The notes under the pieces are model-generated. The model searched no databases. It was not told where the DNA came from and was given only the letters and a program-made list of their open reading frames with translations. 64,000 nucleotides of DNA from a virus (Duplodnaviria > Heunggongvirae > Uroviricota > Caudoviricetes): IMG/VR virus record IMGVR_UViG_3300018475_000004. The stretch is one strand, 5' to 3'. A program made the translations under genes and the position numbers. Shown here in pieces: positions 1 to 60,726 of this stretch (position 1 is the stretch's first letter; the number at the start of each line of letters is the position of its first letter).

Positions 1-673
1 CACGCCAACAAGTATCATCATTCTACAAATAAAATTTAGAATAACGTTTGAAATAATTTTTTGTATCTTCATTTAATGGTAAATAAAGATTCAGCGAAAG
101 ATTAGGAGTATCAACACTTATTCCATGCTTTTGAATATAATTGATTTTCGTTTCAACGGGACCTCTAACAGCCGCATAAGTTTTATGCTTACCGTTTTCA
201 TCTTCCCAAGCAATTTCATAACGGCATCTTCTTATATCTCCACGAAAATAAGCTAATTCAGTTAAATCTTGTAATTGTACAATCCAATAAGTTCCTGTAC
301 CAACCCACTCAAAAACCGTTCCAGGAGCAAAGTTATATTCATAGCCCACTGAAATAATTTTATCATCATAATCCATTTTCAACTTATTCGGATTGATAAG
401 TGCGCGGATCGGCGTCCGATCGCTCGCATCTACAGGAATAACTTTTGCACCTTGATAAGAATACCAAACCGCATGGTCTAAAGAACGACGTTTATCTTTA
501 ATCATTCGCTCTTGCTATAGATTACCGCCAGCTTGTCCCATACGAGCTGATTGATGAAGAACTCCATCAACCCCACTCTTCTTTGGATCAAACTTTCTTT
601 TATCATAAACTCCTAATCGGCCTTTCATCAATCTAAAAGGGATTTGACTACTTAAATCATAACCTGATGCCAT
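1..673 (-). CDS. Virion neck/head-closure-like protein, 3' end runs off window (code 15)
   Basis: ATG at 673 with AGGAG RBS; open to window edge if TAG at 515-517 and 23-25 is read as Gln (GGNL*QERMIKDKRRSLD; KFYL*NDDTCWR); position downstream of capsid genes. Confidence 0.6.
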
Positions 674-968
674 GGTTTAGCTCCTACAATAAACTAATGC
701 ATTCAAACACAGTTTTGCGATATAGCTCAAATTCTGTTTCCTAGGTCTTTAATCCCTCTAATTTACATAACATCTGTAAAAATTGCGGGCCTGTAAAAAT
801 TTCATTCAGTCCCGCAATCTCAATAGTTACTGTATCTAATTGTTTCAGCCAATCTTCTTCGTGTTCGCGCATTGGAATTAGCTTCCATAATTGGTTGGTT
901 AAGCGACGAACATTTACTTCAATATCATACACACGAAATTCAAAACCATACTTAGTAATCAAGAGCAC
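657..968 (-). CDS. Hypothetical head-operon protein (code 15)
   Basis: ORF 741-968 continues through TAG 741-743 and 684-686 to TGA 657-659. Confidence 0.65.
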
Positions 969-1530
969 TAGTCTCCATTAAACTGCCCCAGTTGGAGGCA
1001 TATTTACCATCGGCCGTAAATTTACGACGCTTATATAGTCTTTGCATATGGAAAGAATCTCTTCGACTCTCTTCTAACAAAGCTAATAACTTAGATAAAT
1101 GATTAGCTTGAGAAGTCATTTTAAAATCGCTTCCACTATATTTCATACGAGTATTTTCAATTGAAGTTACTTGACGCTGAACCCAACCTTGTTTCATTAA
1201 AAGCGCCAAGATATTAATTTCCTCAGCAGTAAGTTCAACATTAAAATGTGAATTATCTACTAGGACTTTAGGAGTTTCTAATAATTCTCCATCTAAATTA
1301 CCCCAGATAGTACCTAAAATAAATTCATCAGGGGTTACATCACTTTCCAGCTTTTCTGTCAAATTAAGAGTATAATCATAAAGATTTTGTCTAGGAAATT
1401 CAAAACCCGGAATTGCATTAAGCAAAAGATTTTGTAAATCTCTTAATGTATCTTCTGGAGTGAGCTCTAGATAGAGGTCATCGGTAACTTGTCCAAGAAA
1501 GCGATTATAGACAGACGAAAATAATGTCAT
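952..1530 (-). CDS. Putative head-tail adaptor/neck protein
   Basis: 192 aa ORF, TAA stop; position after major capsid; helical C-terminus SIENTRMKYSGSDF. Confidence 0.55.
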   Translation of the reverse strand: MTLFSSVYNRFLGQVTDDLYLELTPEDTLRDLQNLLLNAIPGFEFPRQNLYDYTLNLTEKLESDVTPDEFILGTIWGNLDGELLETPKVLVDNSHFNVELTAEEINILALLMKQGWVQRQVTSIENTRMKYSGSDFKMTSQANHLSKLLALLEESRRDSFHMQRLYKRRKFTADGKYASNWGSLMETSALDY

Positions 1531-1552
1531 ATAATTGCCTCCTTATATTTTA

Positions 1553-2137
1553 TTATTCAGTAGCTTTATCAGCTGCTGGCTCTGTCTTAATAATATTGTA
1601 CTTAGGAGTAGTGGTACGACGACCAGGAGCGACTTCCTCAGTCTTCACTCTACGCTCAGTCTGCTTTAGGATGGTATTTCCACCATTCTCGTCTTCCTTC
1701 TCAGCTTCTCTGTTCTTTAGAGCAGCATCGACATCAAGACCAGTCTTATCTTTCAAAGCCTTTCTCTTACCCAAATCCATTAGAGGAATTTCCAAGCTCA
1801 ACTTCTTGATCAAATCAATAACTCCAGCTGGAGCAAAATCAAGAGCATCTAAGAAAGCATCTAAAGAACCAGTTCTAATCAAAGCAGCAACATCTGCTTC
1901 GCTCATATGATACTCAGGCTCAGTACGAATATTCAAATTTCTTAGAGCAACTTCGTCTTGAATCTGAAGGAACTGGGAAAGAATAACCATACCACCAGGC
2001 TGATAAGTTAGCTTTTCCAATTCAACATCGCTAACTTTCTTTACTTCGCCGGGAGCAAAACTTCTGCGGATTCCGTCTTCTGGAATCTTATAGGTGACCC
2101 AACTAGCACCTCTGTTCTTTACATTAAAAATAGCCAT
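1553..2137 (-). CDS. Hypothetical virion-operon protein
   Basis: 194 aa ORF with AGGAG RBS directly after capsid gene. Confidence 0.7.
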   Translation of the reverse strand: MAIFNVKNRGASWVTYKIPEDGIRRSFAPGEVKKVSDVELEKLTYQPGGMVILSQFLQIQDEVALRNLNIRTEPEYHMSEADVAALIRTGSLDAFLDALDFAPAGVIDLIKKLSLEIPLMDLGKRKALKDKTGLDVDAALKNREAEKEDENGGNTILKQTERRVKTEEVAPGRRTTTPKYNIIKTEPAADKATE

Positions 2138-2162
2138 TGTATTATCTCCTTTTTCTCATAAT

Positions 2163-2201
2163 AAAAAATAGGGGGAAGTGGGGATATCCCCTCTTCCCCC
2201 T
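2163..2201 (-). terminator. Rho-independent terminator after major capsid gene
   Basis: GGGGGAAG-TGGGGA-TA-TCCCC-T-CTTCCCCC hairpin followed on minus strand by a T-tract. Confidence 0.7.
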
Positions 2202-2225
2202 CTAAACTAATTATTTTATATTAAA

Positions 2226-3365
2226 TTAAACCTTTGGGAACTCGTAGTTAGGATTGTAAGTGGACTCAGCATAAGCCTTAACTTCACTTACATAAGCAGT
2301 GCTATCCCAAACAGAGCCAGCAATATCCATCTGACCCAACAAGCTAGCATCAGCGTAAGCGCAGATGTTGTTAGCCAACATAGCTAGAACGCCGACCTTC
2401 TTATAGACGTGAATATCACGAGAACGGTCATAGTTATTGAACTCGTCAACAATGGTATTACCCTCGAAAGCAATCTTCACAGGCTTGGTGTCAGCACCAG
2501 CGGGGATGATGTAGCAGTAACCAGGATTGATTACCTTGCGCATATTGGTCTCATCCTCTAAGCCCTGGGGTAGAATAACAACCTTACGTCCCTTGTAAGT
2601 AGCCAAGTGACCAGTATCCCACAACTGCTGCTTCATGGACTCAGTGTATCTCCAACCCTCGGTAGGAACCATCTTTACGGCAAACTCGTAAGTGCAGTAA
2701 ATGGTAGGCTCACCGTAAGCAGAAGCGATAACCAACAAGCGATCGAATTCCTGCTCGTCGAAACCATTAACAACAGCGATATTAGCAGGAGGCAACTGAT
2801 TGATAGAAGCAGCTAGTGCATGACCAACTTCCTTCATGATCAACTCGTTCATGCCTTCCATGACGATATTAGTTACTTCAGCGAAGTCAACACGTCCATC
2901 CAAGAACTCTTCGAAGCCGATCTGAGCAGCTCCACCGATGGCGCTAGTGCGGACTTCGAAGCTCTCTTCTTCACTAGGACCTAGCTTGAAGACTTCGTAA
3001 ATACCTGCTAGACCAACGCGAGTTACGAACTGCTTAGCGCGCTGACGAACGTCTCTCTTACGACGGAAAATAGGCTTGTCGCCCTGAGCGAACTGCTTGG
3101 TCTCAGCAAACTGCATATAAGCCTGCTCAACCTTCTTAGGCAGAACCTCGTCCATAGTCTCTTCGATAACTGCGAAGATCAGGTGCTTGTTCTCACGATA
3201 CAAAGCGTAAGTACCAGCAATCTCATTGAATTCACGGCGTAGAGTCTCATTTAGAGTCTCATAGTTAAAACTTTCGCCATTGAAGCTGTAAGAAACAGGA
3301 GCAGAAGGGTCAGCTTTTGCTACAGTCTTTGCCAGCTGTACTAAATTTTTCTTATCTAAAGCCAT
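2226..3365 (-). CDS. Major capsid protein (probable HK97 fold)
   Basis: 379 aa, strongly biased codons, follows scaffold and decoration-like genes, followed by terminator; no TAG. Confidence 0.75.
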   Translation of the reverse strand: MALDKKNLVQLAKTVAKADPSAPVSYSFNGESFNYETLNETLRREFNEIAGTYALYRENKHLIFAVIEETMDEVLPKKVEQAYMQFAETKQFAQGDKPIFRRKRDVRQRAKQFVTRVGLAGIYEVFKLGPSEEESFEVRTSAIGGAAQIGFEEFLDGRVDFAEVTNIVMEGMNELIMKEVGHALAASINQLPPANIAVVNGFDEQEFDRLLVIASAYGEPTIYCTYEFAVKMVPTEGWRYTESMKQQLWDTGHLATYKGRKVVILPQGLEDETNMRKVINPGYCYIIPAGADTKPVKIAFEGNTIVDEFNNYDRSRDIHVYKKVGVLAMLANNICAYADASLLGQMDIAGSVWDSTAYVSEVKAYAESTYNPNYEFPKV

Positions 3366-3384
3366 TATACTTCTCTCCTTTCAA

Positions 3385-4203
3385 TTACTTAATTCTAATA
3401 ACCTTGACACCAGGCTGGTGGTCAGGCATAGTGTAAACCTTAGCAACCTGCCATACCATATCGCCAGAAGCATCAGCAACAGGCTCTAAGATACCATCGG
3501 CAGCACGAGGAGCCAATAGATCGAACTCCTTCAAAGAGCCGGGTTCAGCATGGATTAGGTTGGTAGTGTAGTGGTCACCAACATTAGTCTTGAATACACG
3601 AGGAACCATAGTAGTACCTGCGGGCATCATCTTCTCCTGGTAATCACGCAACTTCATGAACAATCTCTTACGAGCGTCTCCCTCGATTTCAGGATTGTTG
3701 ATGTCGTTCATCTCATAGTAGTCATGTACGCTAGAAATAACGCTGTAATCAGCAACTTCGCCAGTCTCAGGATTCTTGATTTCATCCAACTGCTCGAAAG
3801 CGCCGGTAGTAGGATTATAACGCTCTCTTACGCCGTTCATGAAACGGGTAGGACCGTACATCTCCTCAGGCTTGGTGTGATCCAATGGGCTATAAACACG
3901 AGCCTGATAATTGTCTTTTAACATTGCGAACTCGCAATCTAACTGATGCTCACGATACAACTTGATTTCGTTATAAACAAGCATCCACTCGCCTGCACCA
4001 GTAAAGTTTACAAGGCCAGCTGCATAGTCATACTTAACAAACTGTCCCTGCTCTAGAACCTTAATAGCAGGATCAGCAGGCAACTGAGCATAAATCTGAG
4101 CAGTTCTCTGAGCGCTTAGGTGGTTGGGTTCAACCTGACCGTAGCCGACTTCTACGAACTCTGCCTGAGACTTAATATGCTTCTTCAATAATTCTCTAAG
4201 CAT
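3385..4203 (-). CDS. Putative capsid decoration/structural protein
   Basis: 272 aa between scaffold and major capsid; VEPNHLSAQRTAQIYAQLP motif; biased codons. Confidence 0.55.
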   Translation of the reverse strand: MLRELLKKHIKSQAEFVEVGYGQVEPNHLSAQRTAQIYAQLPADPAIKVLEQGQFVKYDYAAGLVNFTGAGEWMLVYNEIKLYREHQLDCEFAMLKDNYQARVYSPLDHTKPEEMYGPTRFMNGVRERYNPTTGAFEQLDEIKNPETGEVADYSVISSVHDYYEMNDINNPEIEGDARKRLFMKLRDYQEKMMPAGTTMVPRVFKTNVGDHYTTNLIHAEPGSLKEFDLLAPRAADGILEPVADASGDMVWQVAKVYTMPDHQPGVKVIRIK

Positions 4204-4230
4204 TTCTATTTTCCTCCTTATTAGTTTTTA

Positions 4231-5757
4231 TTACATTTCACTCGCAACAGAACGCAAGGCTTTAATCCAAGCGGGAACAGTCTCGTCCGCAGGAACTCCA
4301 CCATCCAAATTATAGGTGGTTACGCCATTGTTCTTATCATCATCAAGGTTGAAACTGACCTTGTTGCGAACACAAATAATTGATAGCTTAGCTTCAATAT
4401 CATCCAGAGAATAAGTATCGATGTTCTCAATAACATCCTTCTTGTCATCATCAGACAGCATATAGAAACTGTCAATCATTTTCTCTTTTTCTGCCTTTTC
4501 AATGGACTTCTTAAATGCAGTCAACTCACCAATCTGAGCTTCTAGGTCAGCGATTTTTTCCTGAGCAGCATTATAATTAGTCTCCAAGTCAGAATATTTG
4601 GAGCTTAGCTCTACATATTCTTGAATTTCATCAAGATTGTATTTTTCTTTCTTGCCCTTTTTCTTTTTATCGTCGTCATCTTCGTCTTCGCATTCACACT
4701 CAGACTTAGGCTTGCCGCACTTAGGGCACTTTTCTTCCTCGCCTTCGCCATCTTTCTTTTCAGGCTCGTCATCATCTTCATCCTTCTTGGCGGCCTTCTT
4801 AGACTTGGCATATTCATCAACAGCGACAGGATCAAACTGAGGCTCTTCAGATGGAGTATACTCTTCCATCAAAACAGGTTCAGCAGCGAACTCAATTACG
4901 CCGTCTTCAGCGATGGAGAAATCTAAACGGTAATACTTATCATCGGCAGTAACAACAGCGAACTTCTGCTCACCATCTTCACATACGCTCTCAATAACGT
5001 AAGCATCTTCAACGCGACTATAAAGAGCGGTCCATAAAGCGTCACCGATTTCAACAGCATATCTAGTAAACACTTTTTCTCCTCCTTTATTCAAATATTC
5101 TTTCAATTCGTTCATCATAGAGAATAGTTGCTCTTTAAAGCCATCTTCAAAAGCGAATTGAATGGTAGGTGCAGTAATGTTGGCACCCTCGAAGCAGGGT
5201 TCATTACTTTCACCAAGAGTACAAAGTTTTGAAATAATTGCTTCATTGATAATAAAGAATTTGGGATCTCCATTACCATCTTTTGACCAATGAGCATCTA
5301 ATGTACCTTCATCCAATTCCATGGATTGATTATTTCCATGTGCCAGGATTCTGCGGCACTCTGGATATTGGCCGGTCCATAACCAGCCCTCAGTCATCAT
5401 ATACTCTCGCTCAGTCATTCCATCATCCAAGAACTTTTGGAACCAAACTTTCGCACTCAAATCAACGAAACCGTATGGGCGAGTAGTATCCTTGATCTCG
5501 AACTTTCCATTGGAAATATCAATGATACGATTGTGCTCCTCAAAGTCGCCCTTATCTTCATTATAAAAACCAACGATAGGGCATCCTGGCAATGAATTAG
5601 CCATTTGCTTTGCAACTTCTTTGGTGATGATACTACGGTTACGATTTGGTTCATCGCTTACGTAGCACACCTTAATCTGACATTTAGAAATCAAAGGATT
5701 GAGAGGAGTAATGTTGATAAACTCAACAGGTGTATCTAACTTAATACTTGTATGCAT
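4231..5757 (-). CDS. Prohead protease/scaffold protein
   Basis: 508 aa between portal and capsid; N-terminal protease-like region (QSMEL, PCFEGA), acidic/lysine-rich linker, C-terminal coiled coil. Confidence 0.65.
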   Translation of the reverse strand: MHTSIKLDTPVEFINITPLNPLISKCQIKVCYVSDEPNRNRSIITKEVAKQMANSLPGCPIVGFYNEDKGDFEEHNRIIDISNGKFEIKDTTRPYGFVDLSAKVWFQKFLDDGMTEREYMMTEGWLWTGQYPECRRILAHGNNQSMELDEGTLDAHWSKDGNGDPKFFIINEAIISKLCTLGESNEPCFEGANITAPTIQFAFEDGFKEQLFSMMNELKEYLNKGGEKVFTRYAVEIGDALWTALYSRVEDAYVIESVCEDGEQKFAVVTADDKYYRLDFSIAEDGVIEFAAEPVLMEEYTPSEEPQFDPVAVDEYAKSKKAAKKDEDDDEPEKKDGEGEEEKCPKCGKPKSECECEDEDDDDKKKKGKKEKYNLDEIQEYVELSSKYSDLETNYNAAQEKIADLEAQIGELTAFKKSIEKAEKEKMIDSFYMLSDDDKKDVIENIDTYSLDDIEAKLSIICVRNKVSFNLDDDKNNGVTTYNLDGGVPADETVPAWIKALRSVASEM

Positions 5758-5768: not shown

Positions 5769-7367
5769 TTAGCTCATAGATTCTTTATTTTGGATAGTCT
5801 TATCGCTCTTTTGATTGTCTGGTTTCTCCGGTCGGCCCGCAGACTTCTCAGAAGACTATCCTCCTGATTTAGTTTGAGTTTTGTTAGTTTGAGTTTGATT
5901 AGAATTGCCCTTTAAGTCTTGCATATTCATAGTAGAAGACATCAGCGGAGGAATCATAACTTCACTCAAATGTAAAACTTCATTTTCAAAGTAAGCAGTA
6001 TTCAAGATAGCACTCTGAGAATGGCCTAAAGCAATTTGAGGCAACATCTTAGAATATCCTAACTGAACACATTCTTTATACATCTTAGACAACTCTTTGT
6101 AGTTATACTGAGTAGTCTCAAGCATATAGAATCTAAAATTGTATTTCTTTTTATTCGCACCAAAATTCTGTGTTAGTCTATCAAAGAAAACACCAAATTG
6201 TAGCAACAAGGTGCGGACCGCACCTTCATCATTTAGCACAGATAAATTCATTGCTAAATTACTATCAGAGTTAAATAAACTTTGCGGAACACCAAAAGCA
6301 TTATATACACTACGCTCAACTTTCATCAAGTCATCTTGAGTAGTAGTAGTATTCTTATCAGACATATCAATACTTTCAATATCAGCGAAAGTAGTCAATA
6401 CGTCAACACCAACCGCACGCTTCAACATCTAAACAGCATTATTATGAATATCTCTTGCTTCATCGACGTCAAAAATCAAATCACCATTTTTATCTAATGG
6501 GAGTTTCTGAACTACAATTTTCAATAACTTTTGCATTTGCTTTCTACGATCCAAATCCTGAGCCGCATCCAAATCCAAAATAAGAGGAATCGCATTGATA
6601 AATAATGGTAAATCGACACCGCCGAATCCACCATTACTAAAACTAAATTTCACGGTTTTCTCTGGGTCCAACAAATACCAACCACTATCTCTATCCCATG
6701 GACTTTCAGGAAGTAACTTACCACTCTTGTAAGCAGCATATCCCTTCTTGAACTCTTCTGGGAACAAATTCAATACTTTCATTCTGTATCCAGTATCTGG
6801 GAACATAACATCAAAAAACTTCATATTGAACTCAACAGTTGGTAAATTATTCAAACTAAAACGAGAACGGCAATAATTTACAGGCAACTCTTGAATAATA
6901 ATTCCTTTTGAGGTGGGAACGATATATCCATAATAAGCGCCATTCTTGATAACGCCAAGAGCCATATCACCGCAAACTTTTTTGACATATGAATTATCTA
7001 AGAAGTTCAAGACCTTATGGAAATCTCCAACAATCTTTTCTTCTTTGATACTTTCATCGTATACTTCTGGAACAACATACCAATCATAACGATACATAGT
7101 AGCGAAATAATTACATACTCTTTGATAGATACCGCTGGTCTTATAGAAGTAATTAGAAATCTCTCTTAACTTCTCAACATCATTATCCGCAAGCGCACGA
7201 TAAATAACGCCTTTATTGATGATGTTTCTAGTTTCCTTTTGAATTGAACCTAAATTCAAAACGGCATCTTCAAGTGTTTTAGTTCCAATTTTAATTTTAC
7301 CATAGGTAGTTCCACCCATGTCAAAACCTTTGGCACGAATTTCTTCTTGTCTAGTTAACTTATCCAA
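5769..7367 (-). CDS. Portal protein (code 15, 532 aa)
   Basis: ORFs 6429-7367 and 5856-6428 are in frame, separated by TAG 6429-6431; TAG 5856-5858 read through to AGRPEKPDNQKSDKTIQNKESMS-TAA; position terminase-portal-protease-capsid. Confidence 0.8.
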
Positions 7368-7749: not shown

Positions 7750-9489
7750 TTAATTATAAAACGCCCAATCAGCAGCGTTAAATCTCTTTTTCTTCTTCTT
7801 TTTATCTTCTTCTTGTTTTATATAATACAAACCATATTCAAACGCAGAAAACTTATCCTTCCTAATTCCACGATTTGCTTGTTTCAAAATGATATTTATG
7901 CCTTCATTTTCTTCACGCAAATTCATCATTTCCTCTTTCAATATGGAAGTTAGGGTAAATGGTTGAAGGTATTCTGCCCTTTCCTCAGGCTTCATTTTCT
8001 AACCTTTTGCGGTTCCCAGTAATTTTTCTCTTGCTGTTCTTTCATCAATCAAGAATTTTACCTTACCGGCCGCAAGTTGGCTTTGTGCGTTTGCGTGACA
8101 CTCTGTATTGATTGGCGCATTTGCCTTGATAATATACATAGCATCATATTCAGTATTAGCTGTTCTATACTTTTTATAATAACCTTCATCGTCGTTTTGA
8201 ACGCCAAAGTCAGGATAGAAGTCTCCATTTTCATCATTCTAAGATTTAATCATATAATCAATTAGACCCAAACCAACACCATTACCGTCGATTACGAGAG
8301 TTCTAGCTTTATACTTATAGAACAGTTTTTTCAGCTTAATTGCTTGATCTTCAAAGTGTTCATCAGCCATTGTATAAATATTTACCAAAGACTTGATAGC
8401 AGGGCCTTGCGCCTGCGGCGTCACCTTGAATACACAAACAACAGAATCACATCCCTTACGACCTACGTCGACTGATAGCACATAATAAGCGCCGGCCGCA
8501 GACCTTCCGGAATGTTCATATTCAGGTTGTAATAATTTTCTATTACGAGTAAAATGTTCTCCATTGAAGAATGCATCTTCAACAGTACCAGACCACTTAG
8601 ACTCATACTCACGCTCGAAAGAGGCTTCATTATAAGTACCTTCATTCTTCTGGTCGGTAATGAATGTTTTACTCTGTAATCCCATTGCCACTGGCGTTCT
8701 CCAAGTACCACCAAGCACAATACAGCGATCGGGCTGAGTGACCATACGAACCAAGAAACCAATCAATCTATCATATGGATAAGTTCCTTTATATCCAGCA
8801 GTTGTAATATAAATCTGAGATTTATTCAAAGGTTCTTTTTCATTAGTAGTACCATCTTTCGCACGACGAGAGATAGCCATAACAGGGATAATAACTTCGC
8901 GAAGGATTTGGTCATCAATACCAACACATTCCTCCATTACGCCGCCATGACGACGCTGACCACGCGTAGATTCACGGGCCGCAAGGTTATCCAGAACAGA
9001 ACCATTCTTAAATACATATCGGACTTTATCTTTACCAGTTAAAGTCTTACCTCGTCCCCAGTCAATTTCTCTTTCAAAGCTGGGAATCAATTTACAAATT
9101 TCTTCTACTTTACTTTGTAGAATAGAAGCACCCTGCTCCTTACCACCAGAAGTGACAAACAAGTGAGCATTGGGATATAAAATACAACGGCACATCAATG
9201 CCATAACAGTCAAGAAAGATTTAGAATATGCACGAGGAAAAACCGCATACACATACTAATATCTCATAACGCAACGAAGGAAAACTCTTTGATAGAAATA
9301 AAAACAGAATTCTCCATCTTTTACTTCGGTACTAGTTCCACGTACCATAAAGTCAACGAATAAATCAGGATATTCTCTCCAAAAGGCTATGTACTTTCGT
9401 ATTGTAGGCATAACAGCCTCAACACGTTCCGGAGAAAGACCAATCTTTCTCCGGGATGTTGATAAATCAAGTAAATCTTGTAAAGCCAT
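7750..9489 (-). CDS. Terminase large subunit (code 15, 579 aa)
   Basis: One frame through TAGs at 9256-9258, 8239-8241, 7999-8001; FPRAYSKSF Walker-A-like, VMEEC Walker-B, SVDVGRKG RNase-H-like nuclease and DKFSAFEYG motifs. Confidence 0.88.
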
Positions 9490-10732: not shown

Positions 10733-11785
10733 TTACACGCTTTTGGCCTTCGCATTTCTACAGCATTTGCAAATGCTATAAAAACCATCTCGGCTTGTCT
10801 TATTTTTACTAAAGTATTTATTGTGAGCTAATTTGACTTGCCCGCAACGACTGCACTTTTTGTATTTGCCCTTCATTTCATTCATGAAGTACCAATTTAA
10901 GAGTCTATCTTCCGCCTCGGACGCAATGATCTTTGGAATTTTATTACGCCATAAACTTGAGATATATTCCAAACTATGCTTGATCCCAAACTCCATTTGG
11001 ATTTTTTCTTGAATATCAATATTTTGTAATCCATCAATTTTATACTCAACAATTCGTTCATACAATGGATAATTTTTCAAAGCAGCATCCGCAACTCTGT
11101 CAAAGTCATCCATCAAGTACCATAAATCTTTTTCAAACTCTCCCCAACTTTCTTGTTTACATAAGGAGTAGTTACAAAGAATTGCTGAGACTACTTTTGG
11201 ATTACATAAAGAAACACCCTCTGGAACAATATAGCCTTCGTCATCAAACCAGAAATCATCATCTAAAGGAATATCGTGTCTTGAACGAGTGATTTTAGTT
11301 GGTACAATTGGTTTACGATAAGCGTTCTTCAAAACATATTGATCTTTTCGCAATTCAATAATTGTACTCTTAATAATAAATGCTTCTCGCCCGGAGGCAC
11401 TCTTTAATTTTGTTTCCCACATTTTGATGGCGTCGCGCAATTGCTACATACCGGGTATTTCTTCTACATCTTGTTTAGTTATCATTACTTTTGGCTGGAA
11501 AATCGTATTCTTATTATTAGTTATCATATTATAAATGCCGTCTTCGCCATTCTCTAGCTGGGAAACAAGACCTTCATAAGAAGTTTCTCGCTTATTGACT
11601 GTAGCCATACGGTTATCAGTTAATAGTTTGCGCTCCTTTTTCTCTTGTTTCTCCATACAGAGAACTAGATAATCAGCTAAAGTTTCTAGATACGCCTCTG
11701 AGGGATTAGGGGTTTCAGCTAGAATTTTTTCAACCAATTCTCTTCTCTCTTCTGGAGATTCTAAAGTATAATCTAATTTCAACAT
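10733..11785 (-). CDS. Putative transcription regulator with helical domain and C-terminal Zn finger (code 15, 350 aa)
   Basis: ORFs 11444-11785 and 10733-11440 join through TAG 11444-11446 (EEIPGM*QLRDAIK); C-terminal CSRC...CKCC. Confidence 0.6.
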
Positions 11786-12125: not shown

Positions 12126-12350
12126 ATGGCACAAACGATAGTGATTACCATTTTATGGGCTGTTATGTCGCTCCTGGCAATGATTGAATATGCACCTTTG
12201 TGTAAAGATTTATCGGAAGGTGATAGATTGGCAGTAGGATTGATTTTCATTATTGGTGGCCCAATATTCGCGGCCGCAAATGTGCTTGAGGCACTTTTAG
12301 ATTGTTTTTTACCGGAAGGATGGAGCGACGATGGAGCTAAAGGATATTAA
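12126..12350 (+). CDS. Small membrane protein
   Basis: 74 aa, two hydrophobic segments. Confidence 0.55.
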   Translation: MAQTIVITILWAVMSLLAMIEYAPLCKDLSEGDRLAVGLIFIIGGPIFAAANVLEALLDCFLPEGWSDDGAKGY

Positions 12351-13110
12351 GAGTTATGTAAATGAACGCAAACAAGAGTTGAAGGAAAAAGTTTCTAAAA
12401 TGGAATTTCCTCCCACCCTAGCAATTGTCCAAGTTGGTGAGAATGAAGCATCAAATCGTTATATTAGAAATAAGATGAAAGATTGTGATGAAATCGGCAT
12501 CACCGCACACACTTATTTTTATCCCACAGAAACCACTGAATTTGAATTAGATGACCAATTAGAGCATATGGTTGAATTTTATGACGGCGTCATAGTGCAA
12601 CTACCACTCCCGCCCCATATCCGCGTCAAGGTCGCGCAGGCCGCAATCCCCAGAGAAAAAGATGTGGATGGATTTAGATGTGATAGTTTATTCCAACCCG
12701 CAACTCCTCTTGGAATTATGAATTATTTGGATTATTGTGGTTTCAATTTTGAAGGTAAAGAAGTCATGATTATCGGCAGAAGTGATATTGTCGGTAAGCC
12801 TCTCGCAAAAATGATGACTGATAGGGACGCAACGGTCACCTTGTGTCATAGTCATTCCAAATTGTCAAATCATTTGTATAGTAGTGATTTGATTGTAAGC
12901 GCCGTCGGCAAACCGGGATTTTTGAATTGTTATCCAATTCATGTTCCAGTTGTCGATGTGGGCATAAATTTTGTAGATGGAAAGCTAGTTGGAGATTGTT
13001 ACAATACCGAGGGGCGCAATGTAACTCCAGTCCCCGGAGGTGTTGGTTTATTGACACGATTGGCTCTCTTGGAAAATGTTGTGAAAGCTAAGGAGCTTAA
13101 GGATGGATAA
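12331..13110 (+). CDS. folD: Bifunctional methylenetetrahydrofolate dehydrogenase/cyclohydrolase
   Basis: VQLPLP, EKDVDGF, PATPLGI, IIGRSDIVGKP, TVTLCHS, VVDVGIN, TPVPGGVG motifs. Confidence 0.93.
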   Translation: MELKDIKSYVNERKQELKEKVSKMEFPPTLAIVQVGENEASNRYIRNKMKDCDEIGITAHTYFYPTETTEFELDDQLEHMVEFYDGVIVQLPLPPHIRVKVAQAAIPREKDVDGFRCDSLFQPATPLGIMNYLDYCGFNFEGKEVMIIGRSDIVGKPLAKMMTDRDATVTLCHSHSKLSNHLYSSDLIVSAVGKPGFLNCYPIHVPVVDVGINFVDGKLVGDCYNTEGRNVTPVPGGVGLLTRLALLENVVKAKELKDG

Positions 13111-14118: not shown

Positions 14119-14556
14119 AAATTTGAGGAGAATGGTAAAATACCGTTCTCCTTTTTTTTATCCCAGAATCGTATTCCGAAATTGAAAATTGATTTCAAGA
14201 TTGTATTGCCCAGCGCAAAAGTTTTGGCCTATCGAAAAAAAAGTTTTTCCCGAAATACACCCCCGGTTTTTCATCCGGCAGAAAATACAGAGTCTATTGT
14301 CCATGTCTCTAAACTCTCTGACACATGACAGATACCCACCCCCTACAAAGCACCCCCTAATTGCTCGGCTCGGCGACGTGCGCGCAGAGCCGATTTTGCG
14401 TTATCTTGAGAGGTTCGAGAAAATTTTGCCACATTCCAAAGAAAAAAAATAATAAAAAAATTTCCTAAAACCCCTTGACAAACTCTCACCCGTGTGTTAT
14501 AATAAAGCTACAAAAAACAGAGGAACACACCTCACAAAGTAAAGGAGATAATCACT

Positions 14557-14928
14557 ATGATGCACAACGTAAACGAACTGTACCACATCAACGGACAGAA
14601 GCTCTACACCAAGGACTACATCGAAGCCCACAACATCCCCAAGCGTAACATCTATGACATCCACAACGAAGGTGGTTGGTCCGAGGTCATGTACATCAAC
14701 AACAACAAAGGCATCATCAACATCTACACCGCACAGGGCAAGAAGGTTGGCTACCTCTACGGACAGTACACGTGGTTCGACACAGAGGCTGAGCGTGACG
14801 AGTACAGAGCACAGCGCAACACAGAGAGAGAAGAAGAGACTAAGCGCAACAAGATGCTCAAGGCTATCATGGAACACTACAAGAGCATGAGTACTGAAGA
14901 GCTTGCTAAGGTAATGGCTACTCTGTAA
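14557..14928 (+). CDS. Hypothetical early protein
   Basis: 123 aa, own promoter and AGGAG RBS, C-ending codon bias. Confidence 0.75.
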   Translation: MMHNVNELYHINGQKLYTKDYIEAHNIPKRNIYDIHNEGGWSEVMYINNNKGIINIYTAQGKKVGYLYGQYTWFDTEAERDEYRAQRNTEREEETKRNKMLKAIMEHYKSMSTEELAKVMATL

Positions 14929-15100
14929 GGAGTAGCCACCGACCACGACCCACAGGCTCCCTAACTGGCCCGTAGGGCTAGGCTGTAGAAAAAAAAGTGT
15001 GTAAAATAATAAAAAAAAGCTTGACAAATAACTCCTGTAATGTTATAATAAAGACACAAAGAGAGAGGGACACAACCCAAGAGTAAAGGAGATACACACT

Positions 15101-15268
15101 ATGAAGAACACCATGACCGTCGCTGAACTGATCGCTCTGCTGAACAAGGTAGAAGACAAGAACACCACCGTAGAGTTCCACAGCATCAGCAACAGAGCCT
15201 ACCAGGATACCATCGTAGATGTAAAGACTAGCAAGTACACCAAGCACACCACCATCACCATCAAGTAA
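15101..15268 (+). CDS. Small hypothetical early protein (MTVAELIALL)
   Basis: 55 aa, AAGGAG RBS, own promoter; below ORF-track cutoff. Confidence 0.7.
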   Translation: MKNTMTVAELIALLNKVEDKNTTVEFHSISNRAYQDTIVDVKTSKYTKHTTITIK

Positions 15269-15282
15269 AGGAGGCACACACA

Positions 15283-15501
15283 ATGAACAAGACAGCCATC
15301 AACAAGATGCTCGACATCATCACAGAGCGCAAGCCTAGCCTGCGCGAGACCTATCAGTACAACTACATCATGCGCATGATGGACAAGCCGAAGGGCACAC
15401 TTGCCTATGCAGAGAAGCTGTACGTCAAAGAGAACCTGCGGTCTCTGTGTGCTGTGGCAGGACTAAGCTATGAGAGACTAATCATGAAGGTCTGCAAATA
15501 A
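15283..15501 (+). CDS. Hypothetical early protein
   Basis: 72 aa, AGGAGG RBS, hairpin at stop. Confidence 0.7.
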   Translation: MNKTAINKMLDIITERKPSLRETYQYNYIMRMMDKPKGTLAYAEKLYVKENLRSLCAVAGLSYERLIMKVCK

Positions 15502-15659
15502 GCAGACCTTTACTTGTCTCCGCACACGACCGCCACCTGCCTAGACTTCGGCGAAATGCACAACTCAGCAAATAAAAAACGCAATTCTTTTGTGTATTTT
15601 GACGATTGACAAATCCCATAATTCATGATACAATACAGGTACAAACAACGAAGGAGATA

Positions 15660-15941
15660 ATGACAATGATTAGAAAAGTACTGTGCGTAGGAATGCTGGC
15701 TCTGGCTATGGTGTGCGGATGGATGCTCGTAGACTGTCTCTACAGTGATGCTAATGAAGTAAGTGCTACTGTGTGCGAAGTCAATGCAGAGGCTGTTGCT
15801 TTTGAGGATGCTTCTGGCGAGGTCTGGGTCTGGGAACTGGAAGAGGGAGAATCCTTCGAACTGGGGCAGCAGGTCTGGATTGAGTTTGATGACATGGGTA
15901 CAAATGACATTTACGACGATGAAATTATTAGAATTTTCTAA
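15660..15941 (+). CDS. Hypothetical protein with N-terminal signal/TM helix
   Basis: RBS GGAG before ATG 15660, hydrophobic N-terminus, acidic domain. Confidence 0.65.
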   Translation: MTMIRKVLCVGMLALAMVCGWMLVDCLYSDANEVSATVCEVNAEAVAFEDASGEVWVWELEEGESFELGQQVWIEFDDMGTNDIYDDEIIRIF

Positions 15942-16008
15942 AAAGGGGCTTGACAACAAGCCTCTTTTGTGTTATAATGAAGACAACAAAAGAGAGGAGC
16001 CAAGAGCC

Positions 16009-16188
16009 ATGAAGAAACTGTTCAAATACATCCGCTTCCGCATCTGCCGGAACATCTATTACGCAGACTGGTGTCCTGTGGACAATCGCAAGAATTACAA
16101 GCAAATGTTTGAAAACTTCCTTGCGGCCTTGGGTCTGACCCTCACAGGTCTGGTTGTTATGATTCTGTTCTGTCTGATGGGGTTTTGA
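16009..16188 (+). CDS. Small membrane protein
   Basis: 59 aa, RBS, C-terminal hydrophobic helix. Confidence 0.6.
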   Translation: MKKLFKYIRFRICRNIYYADWCPVDNRKNYKQMFENFLAALGLTLTGLVVMILFCLMGF

Positions 16189-16274
16189 AAAATAAATAAA
16201 AAACCCCTTGACAAATCCCGAAACTCATGTTATAATAAAGGTACAAAAAAGGAAAACAAAAGGAGATAAAAACA

Positions 16275-16589
16275 ATGGCTACTATGAGATTTGAAATGAC
16301 CTACCACGCTAAGGAAGAACGGATTGACAGACTCACCGCTTGCATCCAACATCTGGGATTCAATGAAATCATCAGAGAACAGACAAGCTACCGGCATGGC
16401 GAATACGCAACCAGAAAGCTGACTGATACCGGAATCATTTTGGTAGTCAAGGATGATACCCTCATCACCGGATACATGGGAACGATGGCTCAGGTTTCTT
16501 CCTTCTACTACAATGAAAAGATGCCTGTGGCATTGAAGAACAGAGTCCGCAAGAACAATGAAAAGTATGCGTTTCTGCTGAGAATGTAA
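16275..16589 (+). CDS. Hypothetical early protein
   Basis: 104 aa, promoter and RBS. Confidence 0.7.
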   Translation: MATMRFEMTYHAKEERIDRLTACIQHLGFNEIIREQTSYRHGEYATRKLTDTGIILVVKDDTLITGYMGTMAQVSSFYYNEKMPVALKNRVRKNNEKYAFLLRM

Positions 16590-16667
16590 GGGGAATGAAA
16601 AATTCCCCTTGACAATAAATAAAAAGTATGTTATAATATTTATAGAAAAACAAAGGAGTTGACAACA

Positions 16668-16814
16668 ATGGCAAAGAAGAAAAAGGAACTGGATCGCCGA
16701 GTATTCAAGAAAGAGGGCGAAGAACTTCAGCAGTGGCTGAACTTCCGCAAGAGAGGAAGCAAGGTAGAAAGTGGCAAGCGATACAATCGCCAGAAGTTCA
16801 AGAAAGGAGAATGA
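16668..16814 (+). CDS. Small basic peptide (weakly ArfA-like C-terminus)
   Basis: 48 aa MAKKKKELDRRVFKKEGEELQQWLNFRKRGSKVESGKRYNRQKFKKGE; promoter and RBS. Confidence 0.65.
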   Translation: MAKKKKELDRRVFKKEGEELQQWLNFRKRGSKVESGKRYNRQKFKKGE

Positions 16815-16818
16815 TACC

Positions 16819-17097
16819 ATGTTGAATCCAGTTAGATTCGCAGACCTCTGCGACAATGTCAAAAACATGAACAAAGAACAGTTGCGGGCACTCGCTCAGA
16901 TGTGCGAGGAACGCATTGACGAAAGACAGGAACGGTTTGAACAACTGTGTAATGGCTTCTACAATTATCTGGAAGACATTCAGAGGGAGTTTCCCAATGC
17001 TCATGTCTATCTCATTCATGGCAACGCACAGAAGTTTGATGTGATGGACTGCATCATCCCGCAAAATACTTACGAATGTTGTGAAATTGGGGATTGA
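16819..17097 (+). CDS. Hypothetical protein
   Basis: 92 aa, AAAGGAG RBS. Confidence 0.65.
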   Translation: MLNPVRFADLCDNVKNMNKEQLRALAQMCEERIDERQERFEQLCNGFYNYLEDIQREFPNAHVYLIHGNAQKFDVMDCIIPQNTYECCEIGD

Positions 17098-17144
17098 CAA
17101 ATCCCCAATTACATGGTATAATAAGTACAACAAAAGGAAAGGAA

Positions 17145-17327: not shown

Positions 17328-17541
17328 AGTGAGAAGAAATTCTCACTTTATTTTTCGGCGCGCCGCCCACGACCCAGCCGGCGCGTTATTTCCATTATAC
17401 CACAGCCCAGCCAATTTGTCAATAGGCAATTTGCACAAAAAACTTTTTTTGAAAAATCCCAAAATAATGCTTGACAAATCGTGATTTATAGTGTATACTA
17501 GGCTTATAAATCAAGGGGCAACCCGGAAAGAGGAACACAAA

Positions 17542-18102: not shown

Positions 18103-18157
18103 AAAAGGGCTTGACAAAATCTCCAAACTATGATACAATAATCAAGAGGTGAGATAA

Positions 18158-50208: not shown

Positions 50209-50483
50209 GATGGTAAGCCACCAGGAGAAGGAAAACCAGAAAAAACTGGAAATACCGGGGCGAAACCTTTGCCTAAACTGGGCTAAGAAATACAGGTTGC
50301 GTGCGGCCGCAGCACGAGTAAGGGACGTAAAGCGGTGGTTTAAGAGTGTTACCTATAACCAACCGGGCGAGAAAAACAAATGAGCAGGCCCGTTAAAATG
50401 ATAGTCGCGAATATCATCTGCAATCCTGGGCTGGTCGAAAGACCCTGGTCCACCCAAAGGCGCTGGCAACCGGCGCCACATAT

Positions 50484-51858: not shown

Positions 51859-52147
51859 ATAGTCGGATAGGAGACTATATAATCAAAACCCTATCGTCAA
51901 GACCGGCATCAGGAGATCCACATCATTGGTTTCCTTTCTGTGGTACTTTTGTCATTGTGTTTTTCATTTTATGCCTCCTCATAAAAAATATACAGCGCGA
52001 TGTGGCTGCCGGAAACGTATCCTTTTCTATATATCTCGAAATATATAGAAACAAAAACTACTATATAGCAGAGAGTTTTTACATCTAGGCTCGGGTGAGT
52101 TTGTTTTTTACTCTGCTATTTCTAATGAAAAATTTCGGAGGAATATA

Positions 52148-53170
52148 ATGCAAGATTTATCAATTATTATTCCTGTTTATAATAATCGAGCAGGCTTAAT
52201 TTCGACTCTGTTATCTATTGGTGAAATCGCATAGACTGTCCTTGATTGGGGCATTAAAGTTATCATAGTTGATGATTGTTCTACCGAAGTGAACTATGAT
52301 GACATTCCTCAATTATTTACTTCATTTGTAGATATAACTTTATTTCGATTATCTGAAAATTCAGGACCAGGTCAAGCAAGACAATATGGTTTAGACCATA
52401 GTGATACTGAATATGTTATGTTTTTGGATGCAGGAGATGTATTATCTTTTCCAACTCATTTTATTCAGCTAATGGATTTGGTTTTGCGTCATCCAGATAT
52501 TAAAGTATTTTCATGTGGTCGAGAAGGTATTTCTGATACTCGTCAAATAGGCTATGTTGGTCCAGCGCATAATAAAATTCATGGAAAAATTTATCGATTG
52601 GATTTTCTGAAAAATTATAATATTAGATTCATTTCTGATCATTATTATTCAGAAGATATTGGATTTAATTTAGCTTGTCGATTAGTTTGTGCAGAATTAG
52701 AGCGACGAAAAAATGAGACTCAATTATTTGAATTTCCTAAGCCGATTACAACTGAATTATTCGATGGAAATTCTATTACTCGTAAAAATAATGGTGAGTT
52801 TAAATATACCGAGAATTATGGTCTTGGGTATAATTTAGTTCATGCTCTTGAAATTGCTTTATCGAACGGTGTTCATCCTTCTATTATTGAAGTGTATGGA
52901 TATGAAAATTTAATCTGTCAATATATTTTCTTTTACGAAGCATATACCCATCAAAAAGGTCTTGAAAAAAGTTTAGAGGGATGCCGTTATTGGTATCGAA
53001 ATTTTAAGTATTGTATTCCTAAATTCAATGAGCAATTACTAACTAAAGTATATAATGATATGATGAAAAAATTATATGCAGAAGATGTAGAATATGCTTT
53101 CAATACAACTATTCCTAAATTATCTTTTTGGGATTTTATAAATCTTCTGGAAAAAGAAGATAAAGAGTAA
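52148..53170 (+). CDS. GT2-family glycosyltransferase (code 15, 340 aa)
   Basis: MQDLSIIIPVYNN...GEIA*TVLD...IIVDDCSTE joined through TAG 52232-52234; GPGQARQYG, FLDAGD, SEDIGF motifs. Confidence 0.9.
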
Positions 53171-57279: not shown

Positions 57280-57965
57280 GCACTCCTGACAGAAACCCTC
57301 CGGTGAATAACCCTGGTGAGTGCGATTTCGACTAATGACTGTCATGAACCTTGATAAGTTTGCAACTCGGTGAAGAACGAATACCATCGTGCCGAGATCC
57401 TCATCCTGCCTGTGGGTACCAGGAGTCCGAAAAGCAATCTTACCGACGATAGCCGGTAATAGGTAGATTCTCTTGTGGTGACATAAGAGAGCCGCCTCCA
57501 AAGGGAGGGCCTGGATGGAGAGGAGTGCAAAGATAACCGCAATCAAAAATACCGTCTTATCGCTTCCGCAATAGACGCCCCCGTGGGGAATAAGCCTTGT
57601 TAGGGATTAGCTGGTGACTGTTCCAGACCAAGGTACACCAATAAGGAAGTCTGCGTTGATGTCGGAGTAATCCGGCTATAAGGTAAGGTCAGGGTACGAG
57701 TAGCTCTATCGCAACGACGAGAAGAAAGATTGGGCTGTTTAGATAGTATGGTTTAATAGACTTAAACAATTCTGAATGGCGAGTGAAAGTTAGAGGCAAT
57801 CAGTCCTCTGCGGGATAGGGTAGGAAAGGCCGCCTCTGGTGTGTCAGAACTACTGGGGCAAGAAGCTTAGGGTCGCTCCCGAAGGCTCAGACTTGTCTCC
57901 CCGGTGATTGAATATGGTTGAAGGTTATAGGGAGTATGACGAAGGTCAGCAAACTTATCAGGTTT
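57280..57965 (+). ncRNA. Probable GOLLD RNA (boundaries approximate)
   Basis: About 690 nt ORF-free structured region between tRNAs; 3' blocks GTAGCTCTATCGCAA, GAATGGCGAGTGAAAGTT..AATCAGTC, GGGTCGCTCCC..GGCTCAGAC, GAATA..GAAGGT..AGTATG..AAGGTC resemble the GOLLD 3' core as I recall it. Confidence 0.68.
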
Positions 57966-57973
57966 ATAAATTT

Positions 57974-58493: not shown

Positions 58494-58901
58494 ATGTTAT
58501 TTGAAACAAATCGTGACAAAGGTCGCGCAGGTATGGCAATGGCAATTGCCTATTTTGGAGCCAATGGATACACTGTGAATGTTCCTCTAAATGATACTCA
58601 ATGGTATGATTTAGTCATTGAAAAAGATGGTGAATTTAAGACAGTCCAATGTAAAGCAACTGGAAGTTCTGATAATACTATTTCTTTGAGAAGTACTGGC
58701 GGAACCAAGGGCGGTACGTATGATAATGTTCTTAATCATCCAGTTGATTATTTATTCTGTTTAGATGGAAATATGAATATGTATGTCATTCCAGTAGCAG
58801 ATATGAAAGAATATGGCTGTAATAAACAAATTACTCTCCGCACTCAAAAATCTGCAAATGGATAGGGTTTTCAAACTTATCAATATCAGGTGTCTTTATA
58901 A
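58494..58901 (+). CDS. Small PD-(D/E)XK endonuclease (group-I-intron-associated / I-Ssp6803I-like; code 15)
   Basis: KGRAG..A.AYF...GY.V..PL.D...YDLVIE......VQCK; TAG 58863-58865 read through to TAA 58899-58901. Confidence 0.75.
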
Positions 58902-58911
58902 TTAAAGATAT

Positions 58912-59001
58912 GGGTCAGTAAAGCGTTAAGGCAGGCGCCCCGGTCTGTAAAACCGGTCCGTTAACACGGTCGAGTGAGTTCAATTCTCTCCTGGCCCACC
59001 A
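58912..59001 (+). tRNA. tRNA-Tyr(GTA)
   Basis: Type II cloverleaf, A73, CCA. Confidence 0.88.
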
Positions 59002-59771
59002 AGAGGTTCAAACCTCTAAAAAATGAATACCATTCGCTGCGAATATAGGCGGGGCATCCTTTCATTCCCAAAGTCCTCGTAGGGTAAAACGTGAGAACTG
59101 CTCCTATGGCTGAAGGTTCTCGGTGGTATTTGAACTAAATAAGGTTTCACTCCGCCTGGTGACTGTGGTGAAACGATATATCCCGACCCGTGCTGATACG
59201 TATCAGATATTTAGTTCGACGCCCCATATGCGTTAATATGGTAGGTTTTCTTTTGACTTTTACCTCAAGCACATAGTTTGATTTTTTCGCTAAAAAGTCA
59301 AAGAGCAGTTTAGTGTTAAAAAGAAAGTGAGACCTTTACTTATAGTCTACGGTCTGTAAGATAAAGTAATCTCCGCTAAGTTGCGCTTCCCCAGACGAAT
59401 AAATAAATCTGAGCGCCTCTATCGCGAAATGGATAGATGATATTGGGTAGCGATAATTGATTGCAGATTTGCCAACTGCCTTAATGTATAATGATATTAG
59501 AAATCTTGTAGGAACTGACATAGCACATGGACCCCAATTCCATGGTCAGGCAACGAAAAGCAAAAGGTGAATACAAGTGGAAAATCCATATTGAATGATG
59601 ATAAGAGCCGATGGTAAATTAGAAGCAGGTCGGTAGTATATGGCGACTCGTTGTAGTCAGCGCATATAAAGTAGGCTCAAGTTAGATTTCAATGTGGATT
59701 TTTTCTATCCTTTTTACTTTGAAAAGTTGATTTTCTAAAAAATTTTTTGTATAATATATACATAAGAAATA

Positions 59772-59838
59772 AAGGCTCACACAGCAACTAATTTTATGAT
59801 GCAGACTTAAAATCCGTTTATCAGAAAAGCGAGCCTTG
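59772..59838 (+). ncRNA. ACAGCAA cassette 9, cargo Leu(TAA)-like anticodon stem-loop
   Basis: AAGGCTC/GAGCCTT stem; GCAGA-CTTAAAA-TCCGT on TGAT/ATCA stem. Confidence 0.8.
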
Positions 59839-59842
59839 ATAT

Positions 59843-59918
59843 GCCAGTATAGCGTAATTGGCAGCGCAACTGACTTGTAATCAGTAGGTTGTCGGTTCGA
59901 GTCCGACTACTGGCTCCA
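59843..59918 (+). tRNA. tRNA-Thr(TGT)
   Basis: Cloverleaf, U73, CCA. Confidence 0.92.
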
Positions 59919-59946
59919 TAAGTTTTATATAGAAAGGATGATTCCA

Positions 59947-60726
59947 ATGCAGGGTGCTATATTTTCAGGTTATGATGCCCGAGATTACAAATTGGTTTAC
60001 ACCGCTTCTGGCGTAGAATTCCCCGCTGAATTTGAGCTGAAGATGCGTGGTATTAAGAATTAGGGTGCGGTCGGCAGCTGTGTCGCTCACTCTTTAGCTA
60101 GTATTATCGAATACTACAACTATACTCAAACTGGTGATCCCAGTGAAATGAGTGTAGGCTATATTTACGGAAACCGTAATACTTCTGACTATAAAGAGTC
60201 AGGTATGATTATGCGTGATGCTCTTGAAGTTGTTCGTAAATATGGCGACGTCAAATATGATTTATTCCCTTACAATCGTGAAGTCCCCGAAATGATTGAT
60301 CTTTATGAGCGTCAGGGTAAGAAATTATTCAAGCAAGGTTATCCCAACCGCATTAGTCAGTATGCTCGTGTTACCAGTTTCAATGCAGTAAAGGCTGCTT
60401 TGATGGCTGGCAATCCTGTTCTAATGGCTATGTGCTGGTTCGCTGATATGGAAGTTGATGATGAAGGTGTTCTACGCACTGAATTTAAAGGCTACGATGG
60501 CGGACATTGTATGTTCATCTATGGCTGGGATGAGCGTGGCTGGAAGGTCCAGAACTCTTGGGGTGAAGATTGGGGAAATCATGGATGTATGATTATTCCT
60601 TACGATATGCCCATCGAAGAAGTTTGGACTTTGACCGATAATGTAATTGAGAATACTAAGACTAAGAAACCCCATAAGTGTATCGCAAAAGTATGTAATG
60701 CTATTTCTAAAATTTTCAAAAAGTAA
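59947..60726 (+). CDS. C1 (papain-family) cysteine peptidase (code 15, 259 aa)
   Basis: IKN*GAVGSCVAHS (TAG 60061-60063 at oxyanion Gln), GGHCM, VQNSWG motifs. Confidence 0.92.

Follow-up and report, generated by a model that had tools for sequence, protein, structure and literature searches.

A gut phage with its own tRNA-CUA: probable stage-restricted amber recoding, with late TAG predicted as glutamine and TAG apparently a stop in at least one early gene

How is TAG read in a phage genome in which this triplet interrupts the large terminase and portal genes and yet appears to close at least one early gene? The question is raised by a 64,000-nucleotide stretch of the IMG/VR virus record IMGVR_UViG_3300018475_000004, referred to here as the window, which is the minus strand of positions 10926-74925 in a record of 138.8 kb (CheckV completeness ~67%). 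A preliminary description of positions 1-60,726 had proposed that TAG is read as glutamine (Gln), as in genetic code 15. The reading favored here, to which we assign a probability of about 0.87, is that this gut phage practices stage-restricted amber recoding by means of its own tRNA with the anticodon CUA (tRNA-CUA): TAG in late genes would be read as Gln, and at least one early gene would use TAG as its stop.

The window is composed of three parts. The first 11.8 kb, on the minus strand, contains the end of a long late/structural module that includes the portal, the large terminase (TerL), and a sigma-like protein. The stretch from 12 to 47 kb carries early and middle genes, many of them short, on the plus strand, and an array of 36 tRNA genes, interspersed with small genes and structured RNAs, occupies 47-64 kb. 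All 15 in-frame TAG positions listed in the preliminary description are TAG on the implied strand and lie inside 10 genes; 11 minus-strand sites appear as CTA on the plus strand, and those at 41494, 52232, 58863, and 60061 appear as TAG. The 10 genes are as follows.

2-673, minus strand: virion-module gene of 348 residues, with its N-terminal 224 codons in the window and the remainder beyond the window start; TAGs at 23-25 and 515-517; phrog_31155.
657-968, minus strand: late gene of 103 residues, a virion-module protein; TAGs at 684-686 and 741-743; phrog_29637 over residues 6-98.
5769-7367, minus strand: portal protein, 532 residues; TAGs at 5856-5858 and 6429-6431; phrog_2739 (2e-83) over residues 58-530.
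7750-9489, minus strand: TerL, 579 residues; TAGs at 7999-8001, 8239-8241, and 9256-9258, spanned by phrog_15503, phrog_24618, and phrog_2.
10733-11785, minus strand: sigma-factor-like protein, 350 residues; TAG at 11444-11446; phrog_5767 over residues 32-345, across codon 114.
30784-30921, minus strand: Arc/CopG-type RHH protein, 45 codons; TAG at 30835-30837; RHH_1 (PF01402), DUF6290, and phrog_876 across codon 29.
41323-42183, plus strand: HNH homing endonuclease; TAG at 41494-41496, spanned by phrog_374, phrog_4538, and phrog_27240.
52142-53170, plus strand: family-2 glycosyltransferase (GT2); TAG at 52232-52234; PF00535 (2.7e-17) over residues 7-167, across codon 31.
58494-58901, plus strand: PD-(D/E)XK endonuclease, 135 residues; TAG at 58863-58865; PF11645 (7.8e-17) and phrog_5018 over residues 8-131, past codon 124.
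59938-60726, plus strand: papain-family C1 cysteine peptidase, 262 residues; TAG at 60061-60063; PF00112 (4.9e-16).

The presence of in-frame TAGs is confirmed. As had been claimed, read-through restores continuous frames for TerL (579 residues), the portal (532 residues), GT2, and the peptidase, and PHROG or Pfam matches span the TAGs in all 10 genes; in the short RHH protein, the RHH_1 match extends over residues 3-39 with 30.3 bits (cut-off 20.5). Across the late strand of the entire record, 17 TAGs are both preceded and followed by 80 or more open codons, compared with two TAAs and no TGA. Coding density, a check proposed in the preliminary description, points the same way: with TAG as a sense codon, the density of a crude gene set rises from 0.724 to 0.783 and the mean length of its open reading frames (ORFs) from 205 to 303 residues, and its stops are 89 TAA and 30 TGA. 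TGA and TAA as sense codons were rejected, as neither raises coding density, and the lack of a gain with TGA argues against working opal suppression here. A count confined to the window and set at 50 or more flanking open codons failed to discriminate, since chance ORFs are numerous in the GC-richer early region. Two contigs from other samples in other studies, X4 and X8, match this sequence exactly at every portal and TerL TAG within their span (5 of 5 in X4, with both portal sites; 4 in X8, in which 6429 is the only portal site covered), and the TAGs are therefore not assembly errors.

The amino acid at TAG was addressed with 90 related loci, 80 around TerL and 10 around the tape-measure gene. 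The TAG-containing proteins were aligned with X at each TAG, and the codon was read off in every relative. Among ~1300 cells, the partners of the TAGs of this phage are Gln in 369, TAG in 282, lysine (Lys) in 170, glutamate (Glu) in 67, tyrosine (Tyr) in 7, and tryptophan (Trp) in 1. When these columns are scored against the substitution profile of each residue from the same alignments, Gln gives the best log-likelihood (-2264, compared with -3211 for Lys). Dereplication to 40 loci preserves the order (-963 for Gln and -1315 for Lys), with Gln holding the plurality at 11 of 20 informative sites. The reciprocal comparison is also in agreement: the TAGs of the relatives fall on 14.6% of the Gln codons of this phage and on at most 1.1% of the codons of any other residue (0.8% for Lys). 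Even in relatives without any in-frame TAG, Gln remains the commonest partner (23 of 45 and 47 of 154 cells). One such standard-code relative, G005, has Gln at all three TerL TAG sites and, in the part of the tape measure that its locus L084 covers, at 6 of 12 TAG sites. The comparison of homologous columns that the preliminary description had proposed thus comes out best for Gln.

Single sites vary in how clearly they speak. In TerL, the TAG at 8239 corresponds to Gln in 67 of 80 loci, and in the virion-module gene the TAG at 515 corresponds to CAA or CAG in 42 of 54. The TAG at 741 is CAA in 25 of 54 loci, that at 684 is TAG in 32 and sense codons in the remainder, and that at 23 is matched by GAT, CAA, or TAG. 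The portal TAG at 6429 aligns to TAG in 26, Gln in 18, and Glu in 13, and the column at 11444 in the sigma-factor-like gene is variable, with asparagine, Lys, alanine, and Gln. Beyond the TAG at 58863 of the PD-(D/E)XK endonuclease, a TAA stop follows 11 codons further on. The papain-type motif KN*GAVGSC, which the preliminary description had taken to indicate Gln, bears this out: the TAG at 60061, aligned as X, falls on the Q of QGxxGSC in 3ois and cathepsin K, which is the position of papain Gln19, the catalytic Gln of the oxyanion hole. The second motif advanced for Gln, SVS*IIRR of the RHH protein, proved compatible with Gln and not decisive for the residue. Likewise, the TAG at 52232 of GT2 is suggestive of Gln; in 6h1j its partner is the Q of "nQT", which is not the case in 5tze, an ambiguous result compatible with Gln. 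Glutamine as the meaning of TAG is thus supported by three independent lines, namely the codon tabulation, the TAGs of relatives on Gln codons, and the papain Gln at 60061, and is the residue predicted here.

A candidate decoder lies in the tRNA array, beyond the part covered by the preliminary description.

62024-62098, plus strand: tRNA with anticodon CUA, called by ARAGORN and scoring 51.5 bits on the Rfam tRNA model.

The tRNA-CUA folds into an ordinary cloverleaf with an unpaired U1:U72, G2:C71, G10, G73, and the anticodon loop CU-CUA-AA. Glutaminyl-tRNA synthetase (GlnRS) of Escherichia coli uses U35, G73, and a weak 1:72 pair as determinants, and a CUA mutant of E. coli tRNA-Trp receives Gln. 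Judged by these E. coli rules, which may not be those of the host, U1:U72, G73, G2:C71, G10, and U35 are present, 3:70 is C:G, and the D-arm is Trp-like. The tRNA-CUA may be a patchwork, with a Gln-type acceptor end on a Trp-like D-arm. Pairwise and MAFFT identity to the other tRNAs of the phage did not settle the isotype; because the body is no closer to the tRNA-Gln genes, the assignment relies on the anticodon, the acceptor end, and the columns of the homologues. Exact matching of the anticodon arm located tRNA-CUA genes with the same acceptor and anticodon arms in nine other IMG/VR contigs, seven of which preserve the Ser-UGA / CUA / Leu context. With the tRNA-CUA as DNA query, five relatives gave no usable hit and the phage collection no nucleotide match. 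A tRNA family search found no matches in G001 and G006, a result that carries no inference on their tRNAs.

The relative G005 is 99% complete, has no in-frame TAG in the genes examined, and possesses a syntenic tRNA array. Between Ser-UGA and Leu-UAA of this array, no tRNA-CUA was found. The same genome contains a 117-nt match to the tRNA model at G005:C1:37212-37328 (L096) that is not called by ARAGORN and resembles a tRNA with an insert of ~40 nt. The otherwise syntenic array of G005, without a tRNA-CUA at the same site, is consistent with gain or loss of the tRNA accompanying a change of code.

The in-frame TAGs are distributed unevenly. The whole record has ~116 of them in the crude gene set. 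The late module accounts for 98 in 20,051 codons (4.9 per 1000, or 13% of Gln-like codons), 36 of which are in a single gene, the tape-measure gene of 3129 residues (PF10145). The early/middle block has three in 7,509 codons (0.4 per 1000); two of these are located upstream of the real start, and the third belongs to the HNH endonuclease. The start of this endonuclease is likely the ATG at 41431, and the motif EVI.R......W.CKC.CG is kept on either side of the TAG at 41494 in paralogues from relatives. TAG-carrying genes are also embedded in the tRNA array, and several abundant late genes, including those at 2226-5757, are wholly without TAG. Two further observations concern the late genes. In the late module of the whole record, the base after an in-frame TAG is A in 46% and T in 10% of cases, compared with 30-33% and 22-23% after CAA or CAG; and TAA is the stop in 33 of 36 late genes.

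An early gene that ends in TAG is found in the plus-strand block, together with a terminator.

25750-26118, plus strand: early gene of 122 residues with its own promoter at 25697-25725; ends AGT TAG, with the stop TAG at 26116-26118.
26117-26146, plus strand: intrinsic terminator hairpin, a 13-pair stem followed by a T-run, beginning inside the TAG stop of the preceding gene.

Three homologues of this gene (49-73% identity) end in TAA: those in loci L143 and L144 stop at the same residue, and that in L145 stops one residue sooner. If the TAG at 26116 were read as Gln, 61 extra codons would be added, crossing the terminator and the next promoter. The terminator, the ends of the homologues, and the extension across the next promoter all argue that TAG is a genuine stop in this gene, which would make it a counter-example to a uniform code 15. 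Just past the window end, at 64887-65153 on the plus strand, a RelE/ParE-like ORF of 88 residues has its TAG 8 nt before a tRNA-Met gene; this toxin-like ORF is perhaps a second candidate for TAG as a true stop. Plus-strand TAGs outside the late module are not all stops: in a RuvC-like gene of another plus-strand block, a conserved C-terminal motif is located after the TAG, which indicates that this TAG is read through.

The proposal that code 15 changes the annotation of the whole window therefore stands in part. It holds for the late and tRNA-array genes, whereas the early genes of the 12-47-kb block avoid TAG and 25750-26118 ends in it, which makes a blanket table-15 annotation slightly wrong. 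The recoding is best described as stage- or module-restricted, rather than as a uniform table 15.

These features can be assembled into a proposed sequence of events. The early plus-strand genes (~12-47 kb), positioned behind near-consensus sigma-A promoters, are written in the standard code, avoid internal TAG, and end in TAG in at least one case. As tRNA-CUA accumulates, it would be charged with Gln by the host, with U35, G73, and the unpaired 1:72 as the likely determinants, and the charged tRNA would then compete with the host release factor 1 (RF1) at UAG. The late genes, including terminase, portal, tail, and tape measure, as well as several genes of the tRNA array, would be produced at full length only after this accumulation. 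The analysis shows the in-frame TAGs, their correspondence to Gln, the tRNA-CUA, the late-gene bias, and one TAG that is a true stop; the charging enzyme, the timing, and any regulatory purpose are what we infer. A more tentative extension, for which we would give slightly less than even odds, is that TAG has two meanings separated in time, stop in at least one early gene and Gln at ~100 late codons, with the tRNA serving as a translational timer. If so, early messages that end in TAG would be read past their stops after the switch and hence be extended or disabled.

Several points weigh against stage-restricted recoding with Gln at TAG. A number of TAG columns are variable, and Lys holds the plurality at 5 of the 20 informative sites. 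The timing is drawn from gene order and promoters. Neither a release factor nor a synthetase gene was found in the record, and at ~67% completeness no firm conclusion on the phage as a whole follows from the lack of an RF-1 domain or release factor there. Nor is the body of the tRNA-CUA clearly of the Gln type, with identities of 65% to tRNA-Cys, 63% to tRNA-Trp, and 55% to each of two tRNA-Gln genes, and its D-arm resembles that of the phage tRNA-Trp gene. Finally, many Firmicutes are without GlnRS, which makes the charging route tentative.

Of the other explanations, a uniform code 15, in which TAG is a sense codon throughout the genome and no gene ends in TAG, fares best and is still unlikely. 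It accounts for the fact that every gene of the crude set built with TAG as sense ends in TAA or TGA, and for the long open extensions that follow most code-11 ORFs ending in TAG. It does not account for the early gene whose TAG directly precedes the 13-pair terminator and whose homologues have a TAA at that point or one residue before it, nor for the TAG of the ORF at 64887-65153 so near the tRNA-Met gene, nor for the near lack of internal TAG in early genes.

Considerably less probable is a decoding of TAG as a residue other than Gln, such as Trp, Lys, pyrrolysine, or Tyr. The D-arm and anticodon loop of the tRNA-CUA do resemble those of the phage tRNA-Trp, but Trp appears once and Tyr seven times among the ~1300 aligned cells, and the E. 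coli tRNA-Trp mutant with CUA accepts Gln. ARAGORN labels the tRNA-CUA "Pyl"; however, its cloverleaf is ordinary, and the general tRNA model gives it 51.5 bits. Among the aligned residues Lys ranks second, but its profile fits far more poorly than that of Gln, and the TAGs of relatives fall on 14.6% of Gln compared with 0.8% of Lys codons. Tyr is found at the TAG at 41494 in distant HNH paralogues. Against all of these residues stands the catalytic Gln of the papain-family peptidase, which is encoded by TAG here.

Least probable of all is that the TAGs are real stops in genes that are split, pseudogenized, mis-assembled, or rescued by rare leaky read-through, for although the frames are broken under table 11 and the terminase of phage phAss-1 is annotated in three pieces in GenBank, TAG alone, and never TAA or TGA, interrupts these frames, the same essential genes of more than 60 related contigs contain in-frame TAGs, often at the same codons, the sequence is identical in independent samples, a dedicated tRNA-CUA is present, and leakiness cannot sustain an essential tape-measure gene with 36 stops.

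Apart from the TAG codons, the window has a number of other features. DNA nearly identical to this sequence is found again in animal faeces and gut metagenomes of several studies. Judged by TerL, the nearest cultured relatives are Enterococcus, Geobacillus E3, Alicyclobacillus, and SPbeta/YonF-type phages, with 33-46% identity; the source is likely a large animal-gut phage with a Firmicute as its likely host. Across the 64,000 bases, the window differs from the stored genome record at one position, 22179, with G in place of A. The plus-strand block opens with a phage FolD, a bifunctional tetrahydrofolate dehydrogenase/cyclohydrolase (12331-13110; PF02882, PF00763). In the region 14400-28200 of the plus strand, short early genes are arrayed, each with a near-perfect sigma-A-type promoter upstream. 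There, 22 sites (19 on the plus strand) agree with TTGACA-17/18-TATAAT in all 12 positions and have a TG upstream, 11 further sites agree in 11 of 12, and promoter-like sites of any quality number 70, compared with 28 in dinucleotide-preserving shuffles. The idea that 13-35 kb is non-coding, since no frame stays open for long, was rejected, as dense short early genes with their own promoters are located there. A possible regulatory module is the small minus-strand block within the early region (28990-30925), where the TAG-containing RHH protein is accompanied by an HTH-domain protein of the DUF6291 family. Three RNA matches on the plus strand lie within the tRNA array: a full-length ROOL RNA at 57342-57967 (Rfam RF03087; 323 bits, cut-off 99); a partial OLE RNA between tRNA genes at 63543-63632 (52.9 bits, cut-off 50), limited to model positions 436-595; and a DUF3800-XI RNA motif, also between tRNA genes, at 50427-50462 (47.6 bits).

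Recoding of this kind is already well described, and the consequence here is mainly for annotation. Table 11 shatters the terminase, the portal, the tape measure, and ~30 other late genes, and a blanket table 15 wrongly extends at least one early gene through its terminator; the right annotation is one in which the code is chosen per gene or per module. What the analysis adds is the confinement of recoding to late and tRNA-array genes, with a TAG stop in at least one early gene and a suppressor tRNA inside the window.

The relatives place this phage in a family of mixed codes. By in-frame stop content, the TerL family falls into three kinds: carriers of TAG, carriers of TGA, and carriers of neither. 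The loci L056, L058, L067-L070, L074, and L077-L080 have 3-19 in-frame TGAs and no TAG. Their identity to this phage is 47-60% over aligned late proteins and 58-65% for TerL, and 78 of their 114 TGA codons fall on Trp of this phage; these loci appear to use code 4 (TGA=Trp). Neither kind of in-frame stop is present in L044 (G005), L049, L072, and L075. Pattern-based locus searches with the 3129-residue tape-measure protein and a 451-residue late protein (nine TAGs) found no relatives. A TAG-recoded lineage is thus added to a terminase family with TGA=Trp and standard-code members, which is handy for studying the speed of code flips.

The bacterial suppressors supE (tRNA-Gln with CUA) and su7 (tRNA-Trp with CUA, charged with Gln) of E. 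coli are chromosomal point mutants of low to moderate efficiency. Similar to these, the tRNA-CUA combines a CUA anticodon, U35, and G73, features that in those suppressors direct Gln to UAG in competition with RF1. In contrast to these mutants, it is a conserved phage gene that would serve about a hundred essential codons, and its charging is predicted.

Among phages, code-15 gut phages were described as established in the preliminary description, and the pattern observed here matches that published by Borges et al. (10.1101/2021.08.26.457843), in which structural and lysis genes use an alternative code, suppressor tRNAs are present, and early genes can be translated by the host. As in the crAss-like and Lak code-15 phages (10.1101/2021.08.26.457843; Peters et al., PMC9523058), TAG is concentrated in structural/late genes and aligns to Gln, a tRNA-CUA is encoded by the phage, and early and replication genes are compatible with the standard code. 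Unlike in those phages, the TerL here groups with terminases of SPbeta/YonF-like, Enterococcus, and Geobacillus E3-type siphophages, the host is probably a Firmicute and not a Bacteroidete, and no release-factor gene was found in this ~67% complete record.

A further comparison is with the Agate clade, which Borges et al. (10.1101/2021.08.26.457843) present as having genomes of ~154 kb, predicted Firmicutes hosts, and TGA-recoded members with close standard-code relatives. In that work, four of eight clades mix codes 11, 15, and 4, and the Agate genomes analyzed have a recoded intron endonuclease in an early gene. Compared by description only, this phage resembles Agate in size class, predicted Firmicutes host, mixed-code relatives, and a recoded early homing endonuclease (here the HNH gene at 41323-42183). 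The Agate lineage that they analyzed in detail is TGA-recoded, whereas this phage is TAG-recoded.

The closest parallel in the suppressor tRNA itself is phAss-1 from the human gut (Babkin et al. 2023, PMC10607447; OQ749652), a phage of ~136 kb with 36 tRNA genes including tRNA-Sup-CTA. In phAss-1, TAG interrupts TerL, the portal, and the tape measure and is read as Gln, and the suppressor was typed as Gln by the authors with tRNAscan-SE (PMC10607447). The same work describes a wider group of code-15 gut phages, and two proposed species-level relatives of phAss-1 that share 83-86% nucleotide identity. TerL of this phage has 46% identity to that of phAss-1, below genus-level identity with the proposed Phassvirus, and the phage thus does not belong to the genus of phAss-1; it would be at most a distant member of the wider group. 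The two phages differ in the number of suppressor genes (three in phAss-1, one found here) and in source (human gut for phAss-1, animal faeces and gut runs here). They share a gut origin, 36 tRNA genes, and a suppressor with an unpaired 1:72 (U1:C72 in phAss-1), G73, and a CU-CUA-AA loop.

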